Position numbers and translations under genes: made by a program. From Terrimonas pollutisoli (GTDB lineage: Bacteria; Bacteroidota; Bacteroidia; Chitinophagales; Chitinophagaceae), in the NCBI RefSeq assembly GCF_029360765.1, contig NZ_JARKNA010000002.1, forward strand, positions 275,334 through 307,333: a DNA stretch of 32,000 bases, written 5' to 3'. This document shows, in pieces, positions 3,230 to 23,478 of the stretch; position 1 is the stretch's first letter; every line of letters starts with the position of its first letter. The notes beneath the pieces were generated by a model that saw nothing but the letters and a program-made list of their open reading frames with translations, was not told the DNA's origin and did not search any database.

Positions 3230-4426
3230 TCAATAAAGTTTATACAAAAGTCGTTTTACCAGCCTGTAATTGGTTATCAGCGAGAGAAGGATCAATACCA
3301 GGGCGGTAAACAATACCGTCCAATGCAATGGCGTAGAAAGCTCCGGCCGGTTATACATCACCAATTGGTGAAAGGCCCATTGCATTAGTTGTGTAACACC
3401 TAAGGCCATCAATACGATCAGAATGTAAACTGGTATAAACTGGCGGGCCACGTTTTTACTCAACCACCCCGGTGAATATCCTAATGTCAGCAATAGTTGC
3501 AAACTGTCCTTGCTGCGGGCAATCACCAATTGCAGATAGAATGAAAAGAGCATCAGGGCTAGTACAACTACCAGCAAGCCAAATACAGCAAGACCACTGA
3601 AGATGCCCTGGAAAACTTGTTTCATGCGGCCGAATTTTGTTTTATCCTTATTTATCTTATAATTTTTTTGATCCAAAAAATTTAAGAGCTCCGCACTATT
3701 TGCATCTTTTGTTTTTATATAAAGCCTCGACGCATGATCTGACTTTTTGCCTTTGAAAGTTAGGTTGGCCCAGTCCAAAAAACTTTTAGGAACTAATACC
3801 GAGTTGATCCTATCGCTGAATGCCACTACCTGTCCCTGGAAAGTTTGTTCAAGGTTACCATCGCCATGGCAGGTGATATAAACAGGAATACCTGTTGCGG
3901 TTTCCTGTGATACCTGCGGTAGGTTATAGCTTGGACCGAATACATTAAATATTTCCAGGAAATCGGAGGAAATGATAATAGGAATTTTTGTTTGACCCGG
4001 CTGCCATTGAAAGGAGGGTGGGACAGTGTCAAGAAAACTATTTTCGATGGTTTCTAAAAAAAGATTGGTTCTAAACGGTAATACGCCGGCAGCGCTTAAT
4101 TCTACCTGGAACTGGTTGGCCTCAAGCGGAGCCACATCTTCCAAAAATGGTTTTGATTTTAATTCAGCAATATCGGCTGCCTGGAAAAGATTTTTTTCAG
4201 CCTGTCCCATCGTTTCATTGGTGACTGTTTTGGTAATGGAAATAAAATCGAAGCCATCTTTGCGGATCGAGCCTTCTTTCAGCATCTGCTGAATGTTGAT
4301 ATACATTTGAATGGAACACAGCAAAAGCAATACACCGATGCCCAATCCAATGTAAGAGAACCAACGGGATAAGGCATTAGTTCCAGTTTGTAAAAGTGGC
4401 CGTATAGGTTTGAACGATAAATTCAT
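3230..4426 (-). CDS. ABC transporter permease, FtsX/MacB-type (one N-terminal TM, large extracytoplasmic domain, C-terminal 3-TM FtsX domain)
   Basis: The topology can be read from the translation: WFSYIGLGIGVLLLLCSIQ, then about 230 hydrophilic residues, then three hydrophobic helices at the C-terminus. It lies downstream of an ABC ATPase on the same strand. I prefer the start at 4426 (MNLSFKPIRPLL), because the longer ORF start at 4453 lies inside the repeat element. Confidence 0.75.
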   Translation of the reverse strand: MNLSFKPIRPLLQTGTNALSRWFSYIGLGIGVLLLLCSIQMYINIQQMLKEGSIRKDGFDFISITKTVTNETMGQAEKNLFQAADIAELKSKPFLEDVAPLEANQFQVELSAAGVLPFRTNLFLETIENSFLDTVPPSFQWQPGQTKIPIIISSDFLEIFNVFGPSYNLPQVSQETATGIPVYITCHGDGNLEQTFQGQVVAFSDRINSVLVPKSFLDWANLTFKGKKSDHASRLYIKTKDANSAELLNFLDQKNYKINKDKTKFGRMKQVFQGIFSGLAVFGLLVVVLALMLFSFYLQLVIARSKDSLQLLLTLGYSPGWLSKNVARQFIPVYILIVLMALGVTQLMQWAFHQLVMYNRPELSTPLHWTVLFTALVLILLSLITNYRLVKRLLYKLY

Positions 4427-12817: not shown

Positions 12818-12856
12818 GAGTTCAGATTTTCAAATTGTTGAATTTTCAAATTTGTT
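12818..12856 (+). repeat. AT-rich direct repeat / small hairpin upstream of nuoB
   Basis: ATTTTCAAATT occurs twice (12826-12836 and 12842-12852). There is a TTCAA-ATTG-TTGAA hairpin (12829-12842). The leading AGTTCAGAT (12819-12827) recurs at 22268-22276. Confidence 0.6.
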
Positions 12857-15439: not shown

Positions 15440-15597
15440 CCCCCCTGCCCACTAAAGGGGAGACTTAGGTCAGAGGGGTTTGTATTTTTGAAAAGTTGGT
15501 TTAAAGTAAGAGTTGACAAATTGAATTTATAATAAAAGTACACTTTGCTTTTTGGTGGAGTGTTTCAAAACTCTCCGCCGAAGGCGGATTGGGGCAT
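15440..15597 (+). repeat. Bipartite structured spacer nuoD-nuoE (hairpin/G-tail family, two copies; left copy is terminator-like)
   Basis: In the left copy, outer stem CCCCCTG (15441-15447) pairs with CAG(A)GGGG (15471-15478). It encloses CCC-ACTAAA-GGGG-AGACTTAGGT and is followed by TTTGTATTTTT. The right copy is TCCGCC-GAA-GGCGGA (15574-15588) followed by TTGGGG-CAT-ATG of nuoE. Confidence 0.75.
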
Positions 15598-16098
15598 ATG
15601 ATAAAATTTTCAGACGATAAATTAAAAGAGGTGCAGGGAATTATTTCCCGGTACCCGGATGGCAAACAAAAAAGCGCCGTCATTCCTGTGTTACATTTAG
15701 CGCAGCAGGAGTTTGGAGGCTGGCTCGATGTTCCGGTGATGGACTATGTAGCAACACTGTTGAATATTACGCCTATTGAAGTGTATGAAGTGGCTACCTT
15801 CTATAGTATGTTCAATTTAAAACCTGTGGGCAAATATATGTTTGAGGTTTGCCAAACAGGGCCCTGCATGGTCAGCGGATGTGATGATATCATTAATTAT
15901 ATCGGGGAGAAACTGGGTATCAAACCTGGTCAAACAACCAGCGATGGGATGTTTACATTAAAAACGGTGGAATGCCTGGGAGCCTGCGGTTATGCGCCAA
16001 TGATGCAGATGGGCAAATATTATAAAGAGCATTTGACAAAGGAAAGGGTTGACCAGATCATTGATGAATGCAGGAAAAGTGCGGTTGCCAACAACTAA
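15598..16098 (+). CDS. nuoE: NADH-quinone oxidoreductase subunit E (2Fe-2S)
   Basis: Cys ligands are CQTGPC and VECLGACGYAP. I prefer the ATG at 15598 because the TTG at 15589 lies in the repeat tail. Confidence 0.9.
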   Translation: MIKFSDDKLKEVQGIISRYPDGKQKSAVIPVLHLAQQEFGGWLDVPVMDYVATLLNITPIEVYEVATFYSMFNLKPVGKYMFEVCQTGPCMVSGCDDIINYIGEKLGIKPGQTTSDGMFTLKTVECLGACGYAPMMQMGKYYKEHLTKERVDQIIDECRKSAVANN

Positions 16099-16115
16099 AC
16101 CAAACGCTTGCACAT

Positions 16116-16559
16116 ATGAAAAAGATCATCAGTTTGATGAGTTTGTTCTTTGTTTTTGTGGCATGTAATAATGCTGGTGATAAAAAAGAGGAATCGAAAG
16201 ATACCAGCACTACAGTAGATCAGGTAGTAAAAAAGGAGCCAGTGGTAACAGAAAGTTATCATGGGGTCATACCTTGTGCCGATTGTGAAGGTATTGAAGT
16301 ATCTCTTAGTCTTATGGATAACGGCACTTACAGCAGGCATGATTTGTATATTTCAAAAAAAGCGAAAGAGCCGGGCAGTAATGAATTCTCTTACCGTGAT
16401 AAATTCATTATGCATGGCGATACGCTGCAACTGCTGGGCATTACTGAGGGAGCGGATCATTATTTAAAAACAGATTCAACGCTGATCCAATTGGGAGCCG
16501 ATAACCATCGAATAACCGGAAACCTGGCGTATAAATATGTATTAAAGAAAACGAACTGA
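16116..16559 (+). CDS. NlpE-N-terminal-domain-like (copper-resistance-type) lipoprotein
   Basis: It has a lipobox (SLFFVFVACNN) and YHGVIPCADCEGIEVSLSL with a CxxC motif, as in the NlpE N-domain. I prefer the ATG at 16116. Confidence 0.65.
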   Translation: MKKIISLMSLFFVFVACNNAGDKKEESKDTSTTVDQVVKKEPVVTESYHGVIPCADCEGIEVSLSLMDNGTYSRHDLYISKKAKEPGSNEFSYRDKFIMHGDTLQLLGITEGADHYLKTDSTLIQLGADNHRITGNLAYKYVLKKTN

Positions 16560-16566
16560 ATATATA

Positions 16567-16992
16567 ATGGAGGCGATAGTACCATATTTGACATTCAATG
16601 GAAATGCCGCTGAGGCATTAACTTTTTACACAAAGGCATTTGATGGAAAAGTCTTGTTTCAGCAAAGCTTTGGTGAATCACCGATGGGCAACGAAACACC
16701 GGATGAATATAAAAACAAAGTAATGCATGCTACCTTCCAGGCGGGTGATCTTACATTCATGGTATCTGATAATATGCCAGGCCATCAGGTTAGTGGTGGT
16801 ACCAACCTTAGTTTGTCGTTAAATTTTAAAACGGTAGCGGATATTGATAAAATATTTGCTGCTTTATCAGAAGGAGCTAAGATTACAATGCCTTTACAGG
16901 ATACATTCTGGGGAGCCAAATTTGGAATGTTGACTGACAAATTCGGAATCAACTGGATGTTTAATCATGATTATGAAAAGAAGGAAAAGTAA
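16567..16992 (+). CDS. VOC-superfamily protein, PhnB-like (glyoxalase/bleomycin-resistance fold)
   Basis: The pattern is PYLTFNGNAAEALTFYTKAF...VMHATF......TFWGAKFGMLTDKFGINWMFN, typical of PhnB / 3-demethylubiquinone-methyltransferase-domain (PF06983-type) proteins. This is from recognition and not searched. Confidence 0.75.
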   Translation: MEAIVPYLTFNGNAAEALTFYTKAFDGKVLFQQSFGESPMGNETPDEYKNKVMHATFQAGDLTFMVSDNMPGHQVSGGTNLSLSLNFKTVADIDKIFAALSEGAKITMPLQDTFWGAKFGMLTDKFGINWMFNHDYEKKEK

Positions 16993-17418
16993 ATGCGTTT
17001 CTTTCTGACTCTTATATTGTTCTTTACAAGTTTGATTCTTGTTGCACAGGCTGATAGCGTTGGCTTAAAAGAAGCGATGCGAACCCTGGATAAAGCATTA
17101 ATGGAAAAGGATAGTGTTGCTTTATCGAAACTGTTGCACAATAAAGTAAGCTTTGGTCATTCGAATGGTTGGGTACAAATGGGGAAGGAGGTGTGGAATG
17201 ACTTGGTAAGCGGCAAGCTGGTGTATAAGAGGATTGACAATGGCTATACAACAATTGCAGCGATCGATAAAAAATGGGCAACTGTGAGAATGAATATTGC
17301 GGCTGAAGGAAAATTGAATGATAAAGTTTTTGCGATGAACCTGCACGTATTACAGGTTTGGATGAAAACAAAAAAAGGCTGGCAGTTGGTGGCGAGACAA
17401 AGTGCAAAGATTAATTAA
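16993..17418 (+). CDS. Secreted NTF2/SnoaL-like (DUF4440-type) protein
   Basis: It has a signal peptide, MRFFLTLILFFTSLILVAQA. Its ~120-aa size and the pattern LDKA....D...L..LL......GHSNG........W, ending with WQLVARQS, are typical of the SnoaL-like fold. Its start codon abuts the previous stop. Confidence 0.55.
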   Translation: MRFFLTLILFFTSLILVAQADSVGLKEAMRTLDKALMEKDSVALSKLLHNKVSFGHSNGWVQMGKEVWNDLVSGKLVYKRIDNGYTTIAAIDKKWATVRMNIAAEGKLNDKVFAMNLHVLQVWMKTKKGWQLVARQSAKIN

Positions 17419-17464: not shown

Positions 17465-18820
17465 ATGGGAAGAAAATTATTATTAGAAAAAGCTCACGTT
17501 GAAAACATCAGGTATTATGATGTATATCGTCGTGAAGGTGGTTATAGAAGTGTGGAAAAGGCGCTGAAGATGGCGCCTAATGATATTACCGAAGAGGTAA
17601 AAAGGAGTGGGTTAAGAGGACGTGGTGGCGCTGGTTTCCCTACGGGAATGAAATGGAGCTTTTTGGCCAAACCCGAAGGTGTGCCCCGCTACCTGGTTGT
17701 AAATGCTGATGAGTCAGAGCCGGGAACGTTCAAGGATCGTTACCTGATGGAGTTCATTCCCCACCTGCTAATTGAAGGAATGATCGTTTCTTCTTTTGCA
17801 TTAGGCTCTAATCGTTCTTATATCTACATCCGTGGGGAATATGCCTGGATTGTTGATATTCTCGAACAAGCGATAACAGAAGCAAAAAATAATGGGTGGT
17901 TAGGAAAAAATATACAAGGCAGTGGCTTTGATTGCGAGATCTATGTGCAACGTGGTGCGGGTGCCTACATCTGTGGTGAGGAAACAGCTTTGTTGGAATC
18001 CCTGGAAGGCAAGAGAGGTAATCCAAGGATAAAACCTCCATTCCCTGCCGTAAAAGGTCTATGGGATTGCCCTACGGTGGTGAACAATGTTGAAACCATT
18101 GCGGCTGTTGTTCCCATTATCAATGAAGGAGCTGACGAGTATGCAAAGATTGGAGTGGGTAAATCAACAGGTACAAAACTTATTTCAGCCTGTGGTAATA
18201 TTAATAAGCCGGGTGTTTATGAAATCGATATGACCATTTCTGTCGAAGAATTTATTTTCAGCGAAGAATGGTGTGGCGGTATCAAAAATGGTAAAAGACT
18301 GAAAGCTTGTATTCCGGGTGGATCATCTGTTCCCATTTTGCCGGCCAATCTTTTATTGAAAACCGCCAGGGGTGATACCCGCATGATGAATTACGAGAGC
18401 CTGAGTGATGGCGGGTTTGCGACGGGTACTATGATGGGATCAGGTGGATTTATCGTGCTGGATGAAGACCAGTGTGTGGTGAAACACACGTATACATTGG
18501 CCAGGTTCTACCGTCATGAAAGTTGTGGTCAGTGTTCTCCATGCCGTGAAGGAACAGGCTGGATGGAAAAATTATTATTGCGTTTGGATAAAGGACAGGG
18601 CAAACTGAGTGATATTGACCTGCTTTGGGATATACAGCGAAAGATTGAGGGAAATACGATTTGTCCTTTGGGAGATGCAGCTGCATGGCCTGTAGCCGCA
18701 GCTATCCGTCATTTCAGGGACGAGTTTGAATGGCATGTGCTGAATCCTGATGAGTGTACTAAAAGGAATTATGGTTTGGCGCATTATGCGGAGCCTTTGC
18801 AGATGGCAACACCTGCGTAA
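17465..18820 (+). CDS. nuoF: NADH-quinone oxidoreductase subunit F (FMN, 4Fe-4S)
   Basis: Motifs are GLRGRGGAGFPTGMKW, GAGAYICGEETALLESLEG and ESCGQCSPCREG. Confidence 0.95.
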   Translation: MGRKLLLEKAHVENIRYYDVYRREGGYRSVEKALKMAPNDITEEVKRSGLRGRGGAGFPTGMKWSFLAKPEGVPRYLVVNADESEPGTFKDRYLMEFIPHLLIEGMIVSSFALGSNRSYIYIRGEYAWIVDILEQAITEAKNNGWLGKNIQGSGFDCEIYVQRGAGAYICGEETALLESLEGKRGNPRIKPPFPAVKGLWDCPTVVNNVETIAAVVPIINEGADEYAKIGVGKSTGTKLISACGNINKPGVYEIDMTISVEEFIFSEEWCGGIKNGKRLKACIPGGSSVPILPANLLLKTARGDTRMMNYESLSDGGFATGTMMGSGGFIVLDEDQCVVKHTYTLARFYRHESCGQCSPCREGTGWMEKLLLRLDKGQGKLSDIDLLWDIQRKIEGNTICPLGDAAAWPVAAAIRHFRDEFEWHVLNPDECTKRNYGLAHYAEPLQMATPA

Positions 18821-18821
18821 A

Positions 18822-18857
18822 TTTCACGCAAAGGCGCAAAGAAATTAAGACGCAAAG
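18822..18857 (+). repeat. Left inverted-repeat arm of the GxxExxY cassette (four 8-mers)
   Basis: TTTC, then ACGCAAAG GCGCAAAG AAATTAAG ACGCAAAG. The arm ends 3 nt before the ORF ATG. Confidence 0.8.
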
Positions 18858-18860
18858 AAT

Positions 18861-19238
18861 ATGACCGAAAACGATATATCGAGAATGGTTGTTGATTTGT
18901 GTTTTAGAATTCATAAACAATATGGCCCAGGATTGTTTGAGAGTGTTTACGAAGAAATATTTTGCTATGAATGGGCAAAGAATGGGATACCGTTTAAAAG
19001 ACAACATGGCGTTCCGTTAGTTCACGAAGAAATAAGAATGGAAATAGGATTCAGGGCCGACGTAATAGTTGATGATAAGGTAATTATAGAATTAAAGTCT
19101 GTTGAAACACTTGCGGAAATTCATTATAAGCAGATGCAGACATATTTAAAATTGACGCATATTAAATTAGGATTACTGATAAATTTTAATGTGCCTTTAA
19201 TAAAAAATGGGATTCATAGAATAGTCAATAACTTATAA
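18861..19238 (+). CDS. GxxExxY family protein (PD-(D/E)XK nuclease-like motif)
   Basis: GPGLFESVY matches GxxExxY, and RADVIVDDKVIIELK provides a D...ExK arrangement. At 125 aa it is typical of the family NCBI labels GxxExxY protein. Confidence 0.85.
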   Translation: MTENDISRMVVDLCFRIHKQYGPGLFESVYEEIFCYEWAKNGIPFKRQHGVPLVHEEIRMEIGFRADVIVDDKVIIELKSVETLAEIHYKQMQTYLKLTHIKLGLLINFNVPLIKNGIHRIVNNL

Positions 19239-19239
19239 A

Positions 19240-19275
19240 CTTTGCGCCTTGGCTCCTTTGCAGCTTTGCGTGAAA
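19240..19275 (+). repeat. Right inverted-repeat arm of the GxxExxY cassette
   Basis: CTTTGCGC CTTGGCTC CTTTGCAG CTTTGCGT, then GAAA. It starts 1 nt after the ORF stop. CTTTGCGTGAAA (19264-19275) is the exact reverse complement of TTTCACGCAAAG (18822-18833). Confidence 0.8.
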
Positions 19276-19283
19276 CCAAAAAT

Positions 19284-20393
19284 ATGGCTGAAGAAAAAAA
19301 ATTATTTAAAGTAACCATTGACAATATCTCCATCGATGTGGAGCCGGGAACAACTATTCTGATGGCTGCACGAAAAATTGGTGGTGATGTTACGCCACCG
19401 GCAATGTGTTTCTATAGCAAGCTGAAGGGCAGTGGTGGTAAATGCCGCACCTGTTTGGTAGAAGTAGCGGCAGGTTCTGCTGCCGATCCAAGGCCAATGC
19501 CAAAGCTGGTAGCAAGTTGCCGTACTACGGTGATGGACGGAATGATTGTAAAGAATATTACAAGTGACAGAGTAATGGATGCAAGGGCCGGTGTGGTGGA
19601 ATTCCTCTTACTAAATCATCCACTCGATTGCCCTATTTGCGACCAGGCTGGTGAATGTCACTTGCAGGACCTCAGTTACGAGCATGGTAAAGAGGGTACC
19701 CGGTATGAGTTTTCAAGAAGAACATTTGAGAAAGAAGATATTGGTCCCTACATACAACTGCACATGACAAGGTGCATTCTTTGTTATCGTTGTACCTATG
19801 TCGCCGATCAGTTGACCAACAGCCGTGTACATGGTGTGCTGGATCGGGGCGATCATGCTGAGATATCAACCTATATTTCCAAAGCTATCGATAATGACTT
19901 CAGCGGAAATATGATTGACGTATGCCCTGTCGGTGCATTAACCGATAGAACCTTCCGGTTCAAAAACCGGGTTTGGTTCACCAAGCCGGTTGATGCCCAT
20001 CGTGATTGTCCAACCTGTAACGGCAAAGTAACACTTTGGAATCGTGGTGATGAAGTGTTGAGGGTAACTGCCAGGAAAGATGAATGGGGTGAAGTGCAAA
20101 GCTATGATGGCAAACCAGGCTGGATATGCAATGACTGCCGCTTCGATAAAAAGAAATTGAGTGATTGGGTAATTGAAGGGCCAACCAAAGTCAATCGTCA
20201 CTCGGTTATTTCAGCCAATCATTATGTCGGAGCCAGAAAGCCGCAGGAAACTGTTGCTGAAGTAATGGGCGGAAGACAACCGAAATTGTTGATGGATATT
20301 CATGCCATCAGTGATGTAAATGATCCGACTGTTGACCTAAGTGAAATAAACGGGCCAGCTACAGGTGCAACATTTAATAATAAGAAACAATAA
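19284..20393 (+). CDS. nuoG: NADH-quinone oxidoreductase subunit G, short form (2Fe-2S plus 4Fe-4S domains, no molybdopterin-like domain)
   Basis: Motifs are CRTCLVEV, HPLDCPICDQAGECHLQD, CILCYRCTYV and CPVGALT. I prefer the ATG at 19284 because the longer ORF start at 19242 lies in the repeat arm. Confidence 0.85.
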   Translation: MAEEKKLFKVTIDNISIDVEPGTTILMAARKIGGDVTPPAMCFYSKLKGSGGKCRTCLVEVAAGSAADPRPMPKLVASCRTTVMDGMIVKNITSDRVMDARAGVVEFLLLNHPLDCPICDQAGECHLQDLSYEHGKEGTRYEFSRRTFEKEDIGPYIQLHMTRCILCYRCTYVADQLTNSRVHGVLDRGDHAEISTYISKAIDNDFSGNMIDVCPVGALTDRTFRFKNRVWFTKPVDAHRDCPTCNGKVTLWNRGDEVLRVTARKDEWGEVQSYDGKPGWICNDCRFDKKKLSDWVIEGPTKVNRHSVISANHYVGARKPQETVAEVMGGRQPKLLMDIHAISDVNDPTVDLSEINGPATGATFNNKKQ

Positions 20394-22232: not shown

Positions 22233-22235
22233 AAA

Positions 22236-22276
22236 GTTCAAAGTTTAATAGTTTAAAGTTTAAGGTTAGTTCAGAT
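22236..22276 (+). repeat. Tandem 7/8-mer array downstream of nuoI
   Basis: GTTCAAA GTTTAAT(A) GTTTAAA GTTTAAG GTTAGTT CAGAT. The same GTTCAAA unit occurs at 17435-17441. Confidence 0.65.
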
Positions 22277-23413: not shown

Positions 23414-23478
23414 AAGTACGAACTACGAACTACGAAGTACAGCGATCGTACCTCGTACTTCTCACTTCTTACTTCGTA
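23414..23478 (+). repeat. Long imperfect hairpin built from heptamer repeats (nuoK-nuoL spacer)
   Basis: The left arm is TACGAAC TACGAAC TACGAAG TAC (23417-23440) and the loop is AGCGATC. The right arm is GTACCTCG TACTTCT CACTTCT TACTTCG TA (23448-23478). I count 21 of 27 positions paired. It is followed by ATTGGGTT-ATG of nuoL. Confidence 0.75.

Follow-up and report, generated by a model that had tools for sequence, protein, structure and literature searches.

The 32,000-nt stretch of the Terrimonas pollutisoli genome that we analyzed, hereafter the window, contains between nuoF and nuoG a 454-bp element (18822-19275) in which a single open reading frame (ORF) of the GxxExxY family, encoding a predicted nuclease, is enclosed by two inverted arrays of tandem octamers. 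Our observations support this element being a discrete cassette with a record of gain and loss, not an ordinary gene of the operon. By its architecture we place it in one class with the ORF-carrying intervening sequences (IVS) found in 23S rRNA, and we see a functional parallel in the pair formed by repetitive extragenic palindromes (REP) and their REP-associated tyrosine transposases (RAYT). The composite reading that we favor, with a probability of roughly 0.55, is that of a selfish ORF-in-palindrome cassette, subject to gain and loss, IVS-like and REP/RAYT-like in its logic, whose nuclease would act on the arrays and whose arms would be processed in RNA.

The spacer between the nuoF stop (18820) and the nuoG ATG (19284) measures 463 nt and has one 125-aa ORF inside it. 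The locus is laid out as follows.

17465-18820, + strand: nuoF, the host gene 5' of the insertion, with Pfam domains Complex1_51K and NADH_4Fe-4S; outside the cassette.
18822-19275, + strand: the whole cassette (left arm, GxxExxY ORF, right arm), set by the limits of inter-locus homology and by the segment missing in the closest relatives.
18822-18860, + strand: left arm, consisting of the TTTCACGC terminus, four tandem octamers and then AAT, with the ATG next.
18861-19238, + strand: GxxExxY/PDDEXK_3 gene, 125 aa, identified by Pfam and NCBIfam matches, conservation, AlphaFold2, Foldseek and dN/dS.
19239-19275, + strand: right arm, consisting of four inversely oriented octamers and the GCGTGAAA terminus, ending 8 nt before the nuoG ATG.
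19284-20393, + strand: nuoG in a short 369-aa form, the 3' host gene, with Pfam domains Fer2_4, NADH-G_4Fe-4S_3 and Fer4_Nqo3; outside the cassette.

The left array (18826-18857) reads ACGCAAAG GCGCAAAG AAATTAAG ACGCAAAG and lies 3 nt upstream of the ATG, and the right array (19240-19271), which reads CTTTGCGC CTTGGCTC CTTTGCAG CTTTGCGT, begins 1 nt past the stop codon. The outermost 12 nt (TTTCACGCAAAG and CTTTGCGTGAAA) are perfectly complementary, and a hand count on the sequence gives 25 complementary positions among the 32 of the arrays. An inverted-repeat search delimited the arms at 18822-18862 and 19235-19275, 41 nt each with 78% complementarity. The octamer ACGCAAAG occurs four times in the window as compared with 1.2 expected occurrences, and three of the four are within the arms. 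The initial annotation had described the 463-bp gap with its one 125-aa ORF, the coordinates and sequences of the ORF and arrays, the 12-nt inverted repeat, the 25-of-32 pairing, and the motifs GPGLFESVY and RADVIVDDKVIIELK in the protein, and all of these match the sequence.

The cassette is compositionally foreign to nuoF and nuoG: its GC content is 33.9% versus 41.8% for the window and ∼45% for the two host genes, and GC at the third codon position of the ORF is 29% versus 40–41% in nuoF/nuoG. Neither a sigma-70-type promoter (by scan) nor an intrinsic terminator was found on the + strand of the cassette, so the gene looks promoter-less and reliant on read-through from the host operon. The same scan led us to reject a promoter within the arms; inspection of the right arm, by eye only, detected no Bacteroidetes TTTG/TAnnTTTG spacing and no sigma-54 GG-N10-GC spacing.

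The encoded protein matches PF13366 (PDDEXK_3; E = 1e-36, 126.2 bits versus a cut-off of 22) and TIGR04256 (GxxExxY; E = 4e-38, 130.5 bits versus a cut-off of 35) over its full length, and the motif that names the family corresponds to G24-L-F-E27-S-V-Y30. Aligning 53 diverse members showed G22, D67 and N108 to be invariant and P23, G24, L25, E27, Y30, E77 and K79 to be conserved in at least 90%. The candidate catalytic residues E27, D67, E77 and K79 thus leave the canonical E...D...ExK arrangement intact. An AlphaFold2 model with a predicted local distance difference test score (pLDDT) of 95.8 has the element order H-H-E-E-E-H-E-E. In Foldseek comparisons the best PDB matches were lambda-exonuclease-like enzymes and Cas4 SSO0001 (query-normalized template modeling (TM) scores of 0.48–0.57), small viral PD-(D/E)XK nucleases matched with TM scores of 0.70–0.73, and the homing endonuclease I-Bth0305I gave a weak structural match. 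As modeled, the GxxExxY protein has the alpha-beta-beta-beta-alpha-beta core of the PD-(D/E)XK fold and is a predicted nuclease; no member of its family was detectable by a sequence search of solved structures.

An exhaustive HMMER search sized the family at 15,793 clusters at 50% identity. A survey of PD-(D/E)XK proteins lists the function of GxxExxY/PDDEXK_3 as "Unknown" (PMC3424549). Our literature search for "GxxExxY" found the family mentioned in passing, searches on the family accessions returned no description of a cassette architecture, and a search by repeat sequence returned unrelated papers only. An exact lookup of the window protein matched no record. Several copies can occur per genome, as in L028 and L046, which derive from one metagenome-assembled genome (MAG), and in L021 and L173, which have two copies each (L numbers denote the loci fetched for comparison). 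None of 50,697 phage records contains the gene, and just 8 of 72,556 plasmid records do. PADLOC defense models gave no significant match, the best being at E = 0.014 and E = 0.037, the latter to Cas4. A known anti-phage defense protein or phage family was rejected as an identity for the GxxExxY protein, nothing in either library being significant.

The inverted arms are a hallmark of the GxxExxY family. We compared a set of 80 species-representative loci encoding relatives of 56–83% identity and a wider metagenomic sample of relatives of 45–86% identity. Nearly all of the 80 loci carry TTCACGCAAAG-(N)CGCAAAG arrays upstream of the gene and CTTTGCG...CTTTGCGTGAA arrays downstream of it. The usual polarity is a purine-rich array upstream and a pyrimidine-rich array downstream, with termini that usually read TTCAC... 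and ...GTGAA, and the wider sample contains lineage-specific unit variants (CGCAAAG, CGCAGAG, CACAAAG, CACAGAG, GCAGAT and ACCGCAA). A strong inverted repeat (score of at least 30) was found in the flanks of 67% of 151 genes, as compared with 1% in a composition control and 15% in non-cognate flank pairs, and inspection by eye reveals arrays at most of the genes below this threshold. Pairing of cognate flanks is also stronger than that of non-cognate flanks (−33.9 versus −26.1 kcal/mol, p = 3e-8). Such arrays extend to loci from Acidobacteria- and Nitrospirota-labelled MAGs, where the arrangement is not always the same, to a Sphingomonas cassette with TTCACGCGAAG... and ...CTTCGCGTGAA arms, and to one of Bacteroides finegoldii with TTCACCACAGAG... 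and ...CTCTGTGGTGAA arms. In Sphingomonas parapaucimobilis (NZ_CP155749.1; L202:2437-2902) the termini are TTCACGC and GCGTGAA, the unit is a GC-rich variant, and the annotated coding sequence continues through the right arm.

The limits of the element follow from comparison between loci. When nuo-site and second-site cassettes are aligned, their homology extends from TTTCACGC to GCGTGAAA and no further, and we therefore take the unit to be 18822-19275 of the window. The closest NuoG relatives that we compared have nuoF-nuoG spacers of only 24–53 nt, which hold neither a gene nor clear arms; these empty junctions come from loci with 91% (L111), 89% (L112-114) and 84% (L115) NuoG identity. Intermediate and elaborated states also exist at this junction. 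A decayed cassette (L203:2255-2530) keeps both arms, the left one a unit shorter, around an ORF that is interrupted after 34 codons and has an internal deletion, and in L204 the ORF is intact and the arrays are multiplied. At the same junction of a Chitinophagaceae MAG (L117:2143-2991) we observed a different, unannotated gene of 282 aa with a signal-peptide-like N-terminus and no Pfam match.

Among the 80 species representatives, 28 have the cassette between nuoF and nuoG, in genera that include Lacibacter, Ferruginibacter, Niabella, Agriterribacter, Chitinophaga, Puia and Flavitalea. Cultured carriers are Lacibacter luteus TTM-7 (L002), Niabella aurantiaca DSM 17617 (L031) and Ferruginibacter sp. 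SUN002 (L015). Sequence inspection placed it between preT and preA, which encode dihydropyrimidine dehydrogenase subunits, in 18 of the 80 and between miaB and a sigma54 regulator gene in 3. In 2 more, both Flavobacteriaceae MAGs (L062:2231-7152 and L063), it lies between fdsB and fdsA, the genes for a NuoE/F-like subunit and a NuoG-like molybdopterin subunit of a formate dehydrogenase-type enzyme. This junction is homologous to nuoF-nuoG in an operon that is only distantly related (∼34% identity), which may be coincidence or target preference. Further sites are between fabD and fabG in Sphingomonas, an alphaproteobacterium, and after radA in Bacteroides. The gene tends to follow the direction of its surroundings: at 106 evaluable loci both neighbors were co-oriented with it in 88 cases, one was in 18, and in none were both opposed. 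The median gaps between the gene and its neighbors, arms included, are 68 and 55 nt.

The initial annotation had proposed that the insert is a cassette and had suggested checking this by family and structure searches, by conservation of the D/E/K residues, by the flanks of other GxxExxY genes and by a search for empty sites. The family and nuclease fold are borne out by the PF13366 and TIGR04256 matches and the AlphaFold2 model, and the putative catalytic residues by the 53-member alignment. Flanking inverted arrays recur well above control, and gene-less nuoF-nuoG spacers are found in relatives with 84–91% NuoG identity. Together with arm homology that ends at the termini and recurrence at other loci, these results uphold the cassette claim.

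Purifying selection acts on the ORF as well as on the arms. For the ORF, dN is 0.10–0.21 and dS is saturated, giving a dN/dS of at most about 0.1. In comparisons with L001, L002, L009 and L015, codon positions 1 and 2 of the ORF are 88–90% identical and position 3 is 47–56% identical, while the left arm is 85–90% and the right arm 86–95% identical. Arm conservation is thus comparable to that of nonsynonymous sites while synonymous sites are saturated, and we conclude that the arms are functional at the level of their primary sequence.

The history of the cassette is decoupled from that of nuoF and nuoG. Across the nuo-site loci, nuoF distances correlate well with nuoG distances (rho 0.75), whereas host and cassette distances correlate weakly (rho 0.22, Mantel p = 0.017). 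The window cassette is nearest to those of L001 and L002 (82–83% amino-acid identity), yet several genomes whose cassettes are more distant have nuoF and nuoG genes more like those of the window than these two loci do. Replacement or re-acquisition of the cassette at the same junction would fit this pattern. We regard the weak host-cassette distance correlation as better evidence of turnover than the protein tree. An argument for repeated independent insertion at nuoF-nuoG from the tree alone was weakened, as only 3 changes are needed and the nuo-site proteins may be paraphyletic.

Since the arms can pair, we asked whether they are better viewed as DNA sites or as an RNA stem. The arm duplex of the window has a predicted energy of −39.7 kcal/mol as compared with a mean of −12.0 (sd 4.4) for random pairs of the same geometry drawn from the window, and 0 of 2000 such pairs reach it. 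The predicted fold of 18810-19295 is closed by the arm stem (z = −4.0, which none of 100 shuffles equals), the RNA stem comprising ∼30 interrupted base pairs, and the left arm alone is unstructured (−2.7 kcal/mol). A helix kept in the sense transcript should be enriched in G-U-compatible mismatches on the sense strand. Arm mismatches from 107 elements comprise 169 transitions that are G-U-compatible in the sense strand, 176 that are so in the antisense strand, and 550 transversions. The sense duplex is marginally favored overall (51 versus 26 elements, p = 0.014), with this preference reversed in the window (antisense −50.9 versus sense −40.7 kcal/mol). Given the lack of a wobble signature and a sense preference that is small and reversed in the window, we do not claim a selected RNA helix. 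Furthermore, the third unit of the arrays is conserved yet non-complementary between arms, being of AAATTAAG type on the left and of GAGCCAAG type on the right. These findings and the primary-sequence conservation point more to inverted arrays of a recognized motif, similar to terminal inverted repeats, than to a stem with a structural role only. Pairing of the arms in RNA may nevertheless occur beside this DNA-motif role, as it is compatible with the data. No Rfam family matches the arms or the compact hairpins described below. We also considered a "stop-codon trap", in which the AT-rich third octamer would stop read-through from upstream, and rejected it because stops in the arms are not enriched over shuffles.

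The arrays also occur without the gene. In many loci, ORF-less compact hairpins of 60–110 nt with the same termini and units adjoin cassettes, examples being those of L076 (fold z = −9.8) and L032 (z = −6.0); such hairpins lie near cassettes in several relatives, and none is present in the 32-kb window. Spans between left and right arrays in the fetched loci number 23 below 150 nt, without an ORF, and 45 at 420–700 nt, a span that matches a pair enclosing a GxxExxY gene; another 13 fit neither class. Closely related cassettes at the preT-preA site differ in this respect, L004 having an arm-ORF-arm and L003 and L005 a hairpin-ORF-hairpin arrangement. In the gene cluster of L173 (700-4750) each intergenic spacer contains a hairpin composed of a right array, a loop and a left array, the loops carrying a conserved TCCGAATTCGGA-like palindrome, and the two GxxExxY genes lie scattered among unrelated genes, one encoding a response regulator and another being a larger regulatory gene.

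The same architecture surrounds a different gene, which belongs to PF05635 ("23S rRNA-intervening sequence protein") and encodes a four-helix bundle. In Chitinophagaceae it lies at a conserved junction of amidohydrolase (dihydropyrimidinase-type) and CN-hydrolase genes (L020:1210-1660; L207-L213 around 1430-1960), within the pyrimidine-catabolism operon that also hosts the preT-preA GxxExxY cassette. This gene is bounded by inverted arrays that abut its start and stop codons, of GAATTATGA type upstream and TCATAATT downstream; a second example, in L170 (4637-5095), has AAGATTGAGATT arrays. The unit of the PF05635 cassette, AATTATGA, is an octamer that differs from the GxxExxY unit.

The recurrence of one design across phyla and its resemblance to rRNA IVS make the GxxExxY cassette look like an undescribed kind of selfish DNA element, for which we propose the following working. 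Having no promoter or terminator of its own, the cassette would be transcribed and translated from host operon RNA, and such dependence on the host transcript would explain the absence of genes antisense to both neighbors. Judging from the sequence, the nuclease probably recognizes the repeat arrays. The arms would then be cis-acting, sequence-specific sites that are most likely bound and/or cut as DNA by the encoded enzyme, and the purifying selection seen on arm nucleotides accords with action of the putative nuclease on its own ends. Cleavage at arrays, either at the ends of the cassette or at ORF-less hairpin copies, might be followed by recombinational repair, through which array-bearing or allelic sites would receive a copy of the cassette or exchange it. 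ORF-less hairpins would then remain after decay, with clean loss as the eventual outcome. At the RNA level, the arms could pair as a ∼30-bp interrupted stem and RNase III could excise the insert from the host transcript, which would make an insertion tolerable within an essential operon. Such pairing in nuo mRNA is plausible by analogy with rRNA IVS that are excised by RNase III (PMC4990558).

More tentatively, and with somewhat less than even odds in our judgment, the GxxExxY cassettes, the PF05635 cassettes and the ORF-bearing rRNA IVS might form one hitherto unrecognized cross-phylum class of mobile elements, palindrome-bounded single-ORF cassettes residing in host transcripts (operons and rRNA). 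Their paired arms would allow silencing or excision in RNA, the encoded array-specific protein would spread them at the DNA level, and REP-like ORF-less hairpins would be left behind.

Several observations weigh against the selfish-cassette reading. Searched for by exact match, the left-arm motif TTCACGCAAAG-NCGCAAAG-... turned up in 30 IMG/VR viral or prophage contigs (L081-L110; GC 35–69%), none of which has a GxxExxY gene. These contigs often carry several copies of the motif on one strand, located 4–15 nt upstream of an unrelated ATG or GTG and sometimes overlapping the Shine-Dalgarno sequence. The array motif also flanks unrelated genes, and occurrence of arrays without the nuclease gene means that they may have a nuclease-independent function. 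The protein tree needs 3 site changes, compared with 2 under strictly vertical descent and ∼17 with random labels, so that cassettes are mostly faithful to their sites and movement to new ones must be rare. At the junctions we saw neither a target-site duplication nor a target sequence that is conserved, and the empty sites of relatives are too diverged for alignment across the junction. The arm mismatches show no G-U wobble excess and so give no positive support for a selected RNA stem. Lastly, neither the arrays nor the gene recur elsewhere in the 32-kb window, which thus shows no sign of recent proliferation.

These points leave room for other explanations. It is possible, though unlikely, that the element works chiefly at the RNA level, with the arm stem processing, stabilizing or translationally coupling the flanking cistrons and with GxxExxY as a patchily distributed but otherwise ordinary accessory protein, useful to the host, that spreads by general recombination alone. 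A gene that sits inside operons and is never antisense to both neighbors, arms that adjoin its start and stop codons, a minimum-free-energy fold closed by the arm stem at z = −4, strong purifying selection on the protein, and the known RNase III excision of rRNA IVS with the same architecture (PMC4990558) would all be expected of such an element. It accords poorly with mismatches that are dominated by transversions and lack a wobble or compensatory signature, and with a window duplex that is more stable in antisense (−50.9 versus −40.7 kcal/mol). Cassettes at different sites share a conserved third octamer that is non-complementary between the arms, arm sequences have been kept to the same degree as nonsynonymous sites, which a pure stem would not need, and close relatives manage without the element. 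We consider it rather improbable that the gene is a free-standing homing endonuclease which cuts the empty nuoF-nuoG junction and is copied in by repair through flank homology, the arms serving only for expression or insulation. PD-(D/E)XK homing endonucleases exist and one of them, I-Bth0305I, is a weak structural match. The position between conserved genes, the clean empty alleles, the decoupling of cassette and flank histories at one site, and the second independent case between NuoF-like and NuoG-like formate dehydrogenase subunits speak for homing as well. Proteins of 70–80% identity are nonetheless found at unrelated junctions without shared flanking sequence, it is the arms and not a host target that are conserved between copies, and a single-domain protein of 125 aa leaves little room for recognition of a long target.

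A still more doubtful explanation is coincidence, in which the octamer hairpins would be generic intergenic repeats, REP-like or made by slippage, with a function or mobilizer of their own, and small genes would accumulate there. Gene-less arrays in phage-like contigs and around unrelated genes, and other inverted short-tandem-repeat structures in relatives, are what this would produce. Array-pair spans nevertheless fall into two size classes (23 and 45, with 13 others), array polarity is fixed relative to the gene, unit variants co-segregate with the gene across phyla, Alphaproteobacteria included, and the PF05635 cassettes have a different unit. Finally, presence at nuoF-nuoG in 28 Chitinophagaceae-like species representatives could indicate an ordinary operon gene, that is, a complex I accessory or assembly factor co-evolved with nuoF and nuoG. 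This is effectively refuted by the absence of the gene from the closest relatives, by the same cassette in pyrimidine-catabolism, fatty-acid, tRNA-modification and DNA-repair contexts, by the predicted nuclease fold, and by distances that correlate weakly with those of nuoF/nuoG.

Other repeats and insertions were observed in the same material. In the viral contig L088 (4200-6400) the left-arm motif belongs to a longer element, copies of which occupy several intergenic spacers in succession. L094, a GC-rich viral contig with CGCAAAG arrays, also has long inverted arrays of heptamers (1-160, 1973-2026 and 3597-3671) with the units GGGGACA/GGGGATA and AGTGGGT/ACCCACT. Within the window, TTCAAATT is repeated four times before nuoB (12821-12853), AAAGTTT five times after nuoI (22233-22267) and TACGAAC 3.4 times between nuoK and nuoL (23417-23475), the last followed by partly complementary CTTC-rich repeats. 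We rejected the nuoK-nuoL structure as a hairpin since its fold is not significant (z = −1.2). In the closest relative, the nuoJ-nuoK spacer (L111:6537-6712) has clear inverted TGTGGAA-type arrays with a loop of ∼125 nt. Three non-nuo genes are interposed between nuoE (15589-16098) and nuoF in the window (16068-17418): an NlpE-like gene (16068-16559), which shares 31 nt with the end of nuoE, followed by genes for a VOC/glyoxalase protein (16567-16992) and a DUF4440 protein (16993-17418). Relatives differ in what this gap holds: both the VOC and the DUF4440 gene in L111, just the DUF4440 gene in L112 and L115, and apparently none of the three in L028. These variable subsets make nuoE-nuoF a second variable insertion spot of the nuo operon.

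GxxExxY/PDDEXK_3 is a large and widely annotated family, and the selfish-cassette reading offers it a testable role as the array-specific nuclease of a selfish element. The cassettes are precisely bounded and colonize intercistronic junctions of essential operons in several phyla, and they show how an essential polycistron can accept a foreign gene with no apparent harm. Their architecture connects them to the old puzzle of ORF-containing rRNA IVS. The cross-phylum class, if true, would explain the origin of those IVS and would give a function to a nuclease family of >15,000 clusters at 50% identity. Pairs of nuclease and array with lineage-specific units could also yield new sequence-specific modules for DNA or RNA recognition.

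Among known systems, the closest in form are the ORF-bearing 23S rRNA IVS of Coxiella and Leptospira, whose origins and functions "remain unclear" (PMC4990558). The Coxiella IVS is 428 nt long with a 28-bp terminal inverted-repeat stem, has three tandem GACAGAT heptamers and a degenerate fourth directly before its S23p ORF, is lower in GC than its host and is sporadically distributed (PMC4990558). Its excision by RNase III has been demonstrated, with cleavage at the first repeat, and its ORF is reported to be decaying; an older hypothesis cited there holds that the IVS is a mobile element whose ORF serves mobility (PMC4990558). Shared with the GxxExxY cassette are a length of ∼430–450 nt, one promoter-less sense ORF of ∼120–125 aa, terminal inverted repeats forming a stem of ∼28–40 bp, tandem 7–8-nt repeats before the start codon (GACAGAT three times in Coxiella, ACGCAAAG-type units four times here), low GC relative to the host, sporadic occurrence, and tolerance within an essential transcript. 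The two differ in their host sequence, which is rRNA (helix 9, 25 or 45) for the IVS and the protein-coding nuo operon here; no rRNA motifs were found in loci L001-L200. They differ also in their ORF, an S23p/PF05635 four-helix bundle in the one and a predicted PF13366 PD-(D/E)XK nuclease in the other, and in its fate, decay in Coxiella as opposed to strong purifying selection here.

The REP/RAYT systems, including the REP doublets forming hairpins (REPINs), place a gene for a small nucleic-acid enzyme between inverted short repeats and leave ORF-less hairpin copies in intergenic regions of operons. RAYT is an HUH/Y1 (IS200-like) transposase, and REPs are single palindromes with a GTAG head. 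The GxxExxY cassette resembles them in having an enzyme gene flanked by inverted copies of a repeat and, in several relatives, ORF-less hairpins of the same repeat near cassettes. It differs in its predicted PD-(D/E)XK nuclease in place of an HUH/Y1 transposase, in its tandem octamer arrays in place of single GTAG-headed palindromes, and in the several GxxExxY copies per genome. Two of the fetched loci contain IS200/RAYT-like genes flanked by 34–37-nt inverted hairpin repeats in the classical REP/RAYT layout (L148:3344-4078 and L003:847-1608), the Y1_Tnp match in L148 being weak and the RAYT assignment in L003 made by motif inspection only. We do not assign the cassette to the IVS or to REP/RAYT because it is not located in rRNA, its ORF is not S23p and its enzyme is not an HUH transposase.

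More distant parallels can be drawn with three other kinds of element. Free-standing homing endonuclease genes of the T4 seg/mob type, and PD-(D/E)XK homing enzymes such as I-Ssp6803I and I-Bth0305I, share with the cassette a nuclease gene between conserved genes, presence/absence polymorphism and a history decoupled from the flanks; the cassette differs in having its own conserved terminal inverted arrays and related copies at unrelated junctions. Transposons and miniature inverted-repeat transposable elements are alike in their terminal inverted repeats, conserved tips and ORF-less derivatives (here L203 and the compact hairpins), whereas the cassette has no recognizable transposase family, shows no evident target-site duplication and is highly faithful to its site. 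Integron cassettes likewise consist of promoter-less, co-oriented ORFs that need transcription from outside, each with an imperfect palindromic site (attC). In those the palindrome is at one end while here it is split around the ORF, no integrase or attI is present in the nuo neighborhood, and the termini are TTCAC/GTGAA and not GTTRRRY. Already known are the protein family, which is catalogued, and the architecture, from rRNA IVS; the logic resembles that of REP/RAYT.

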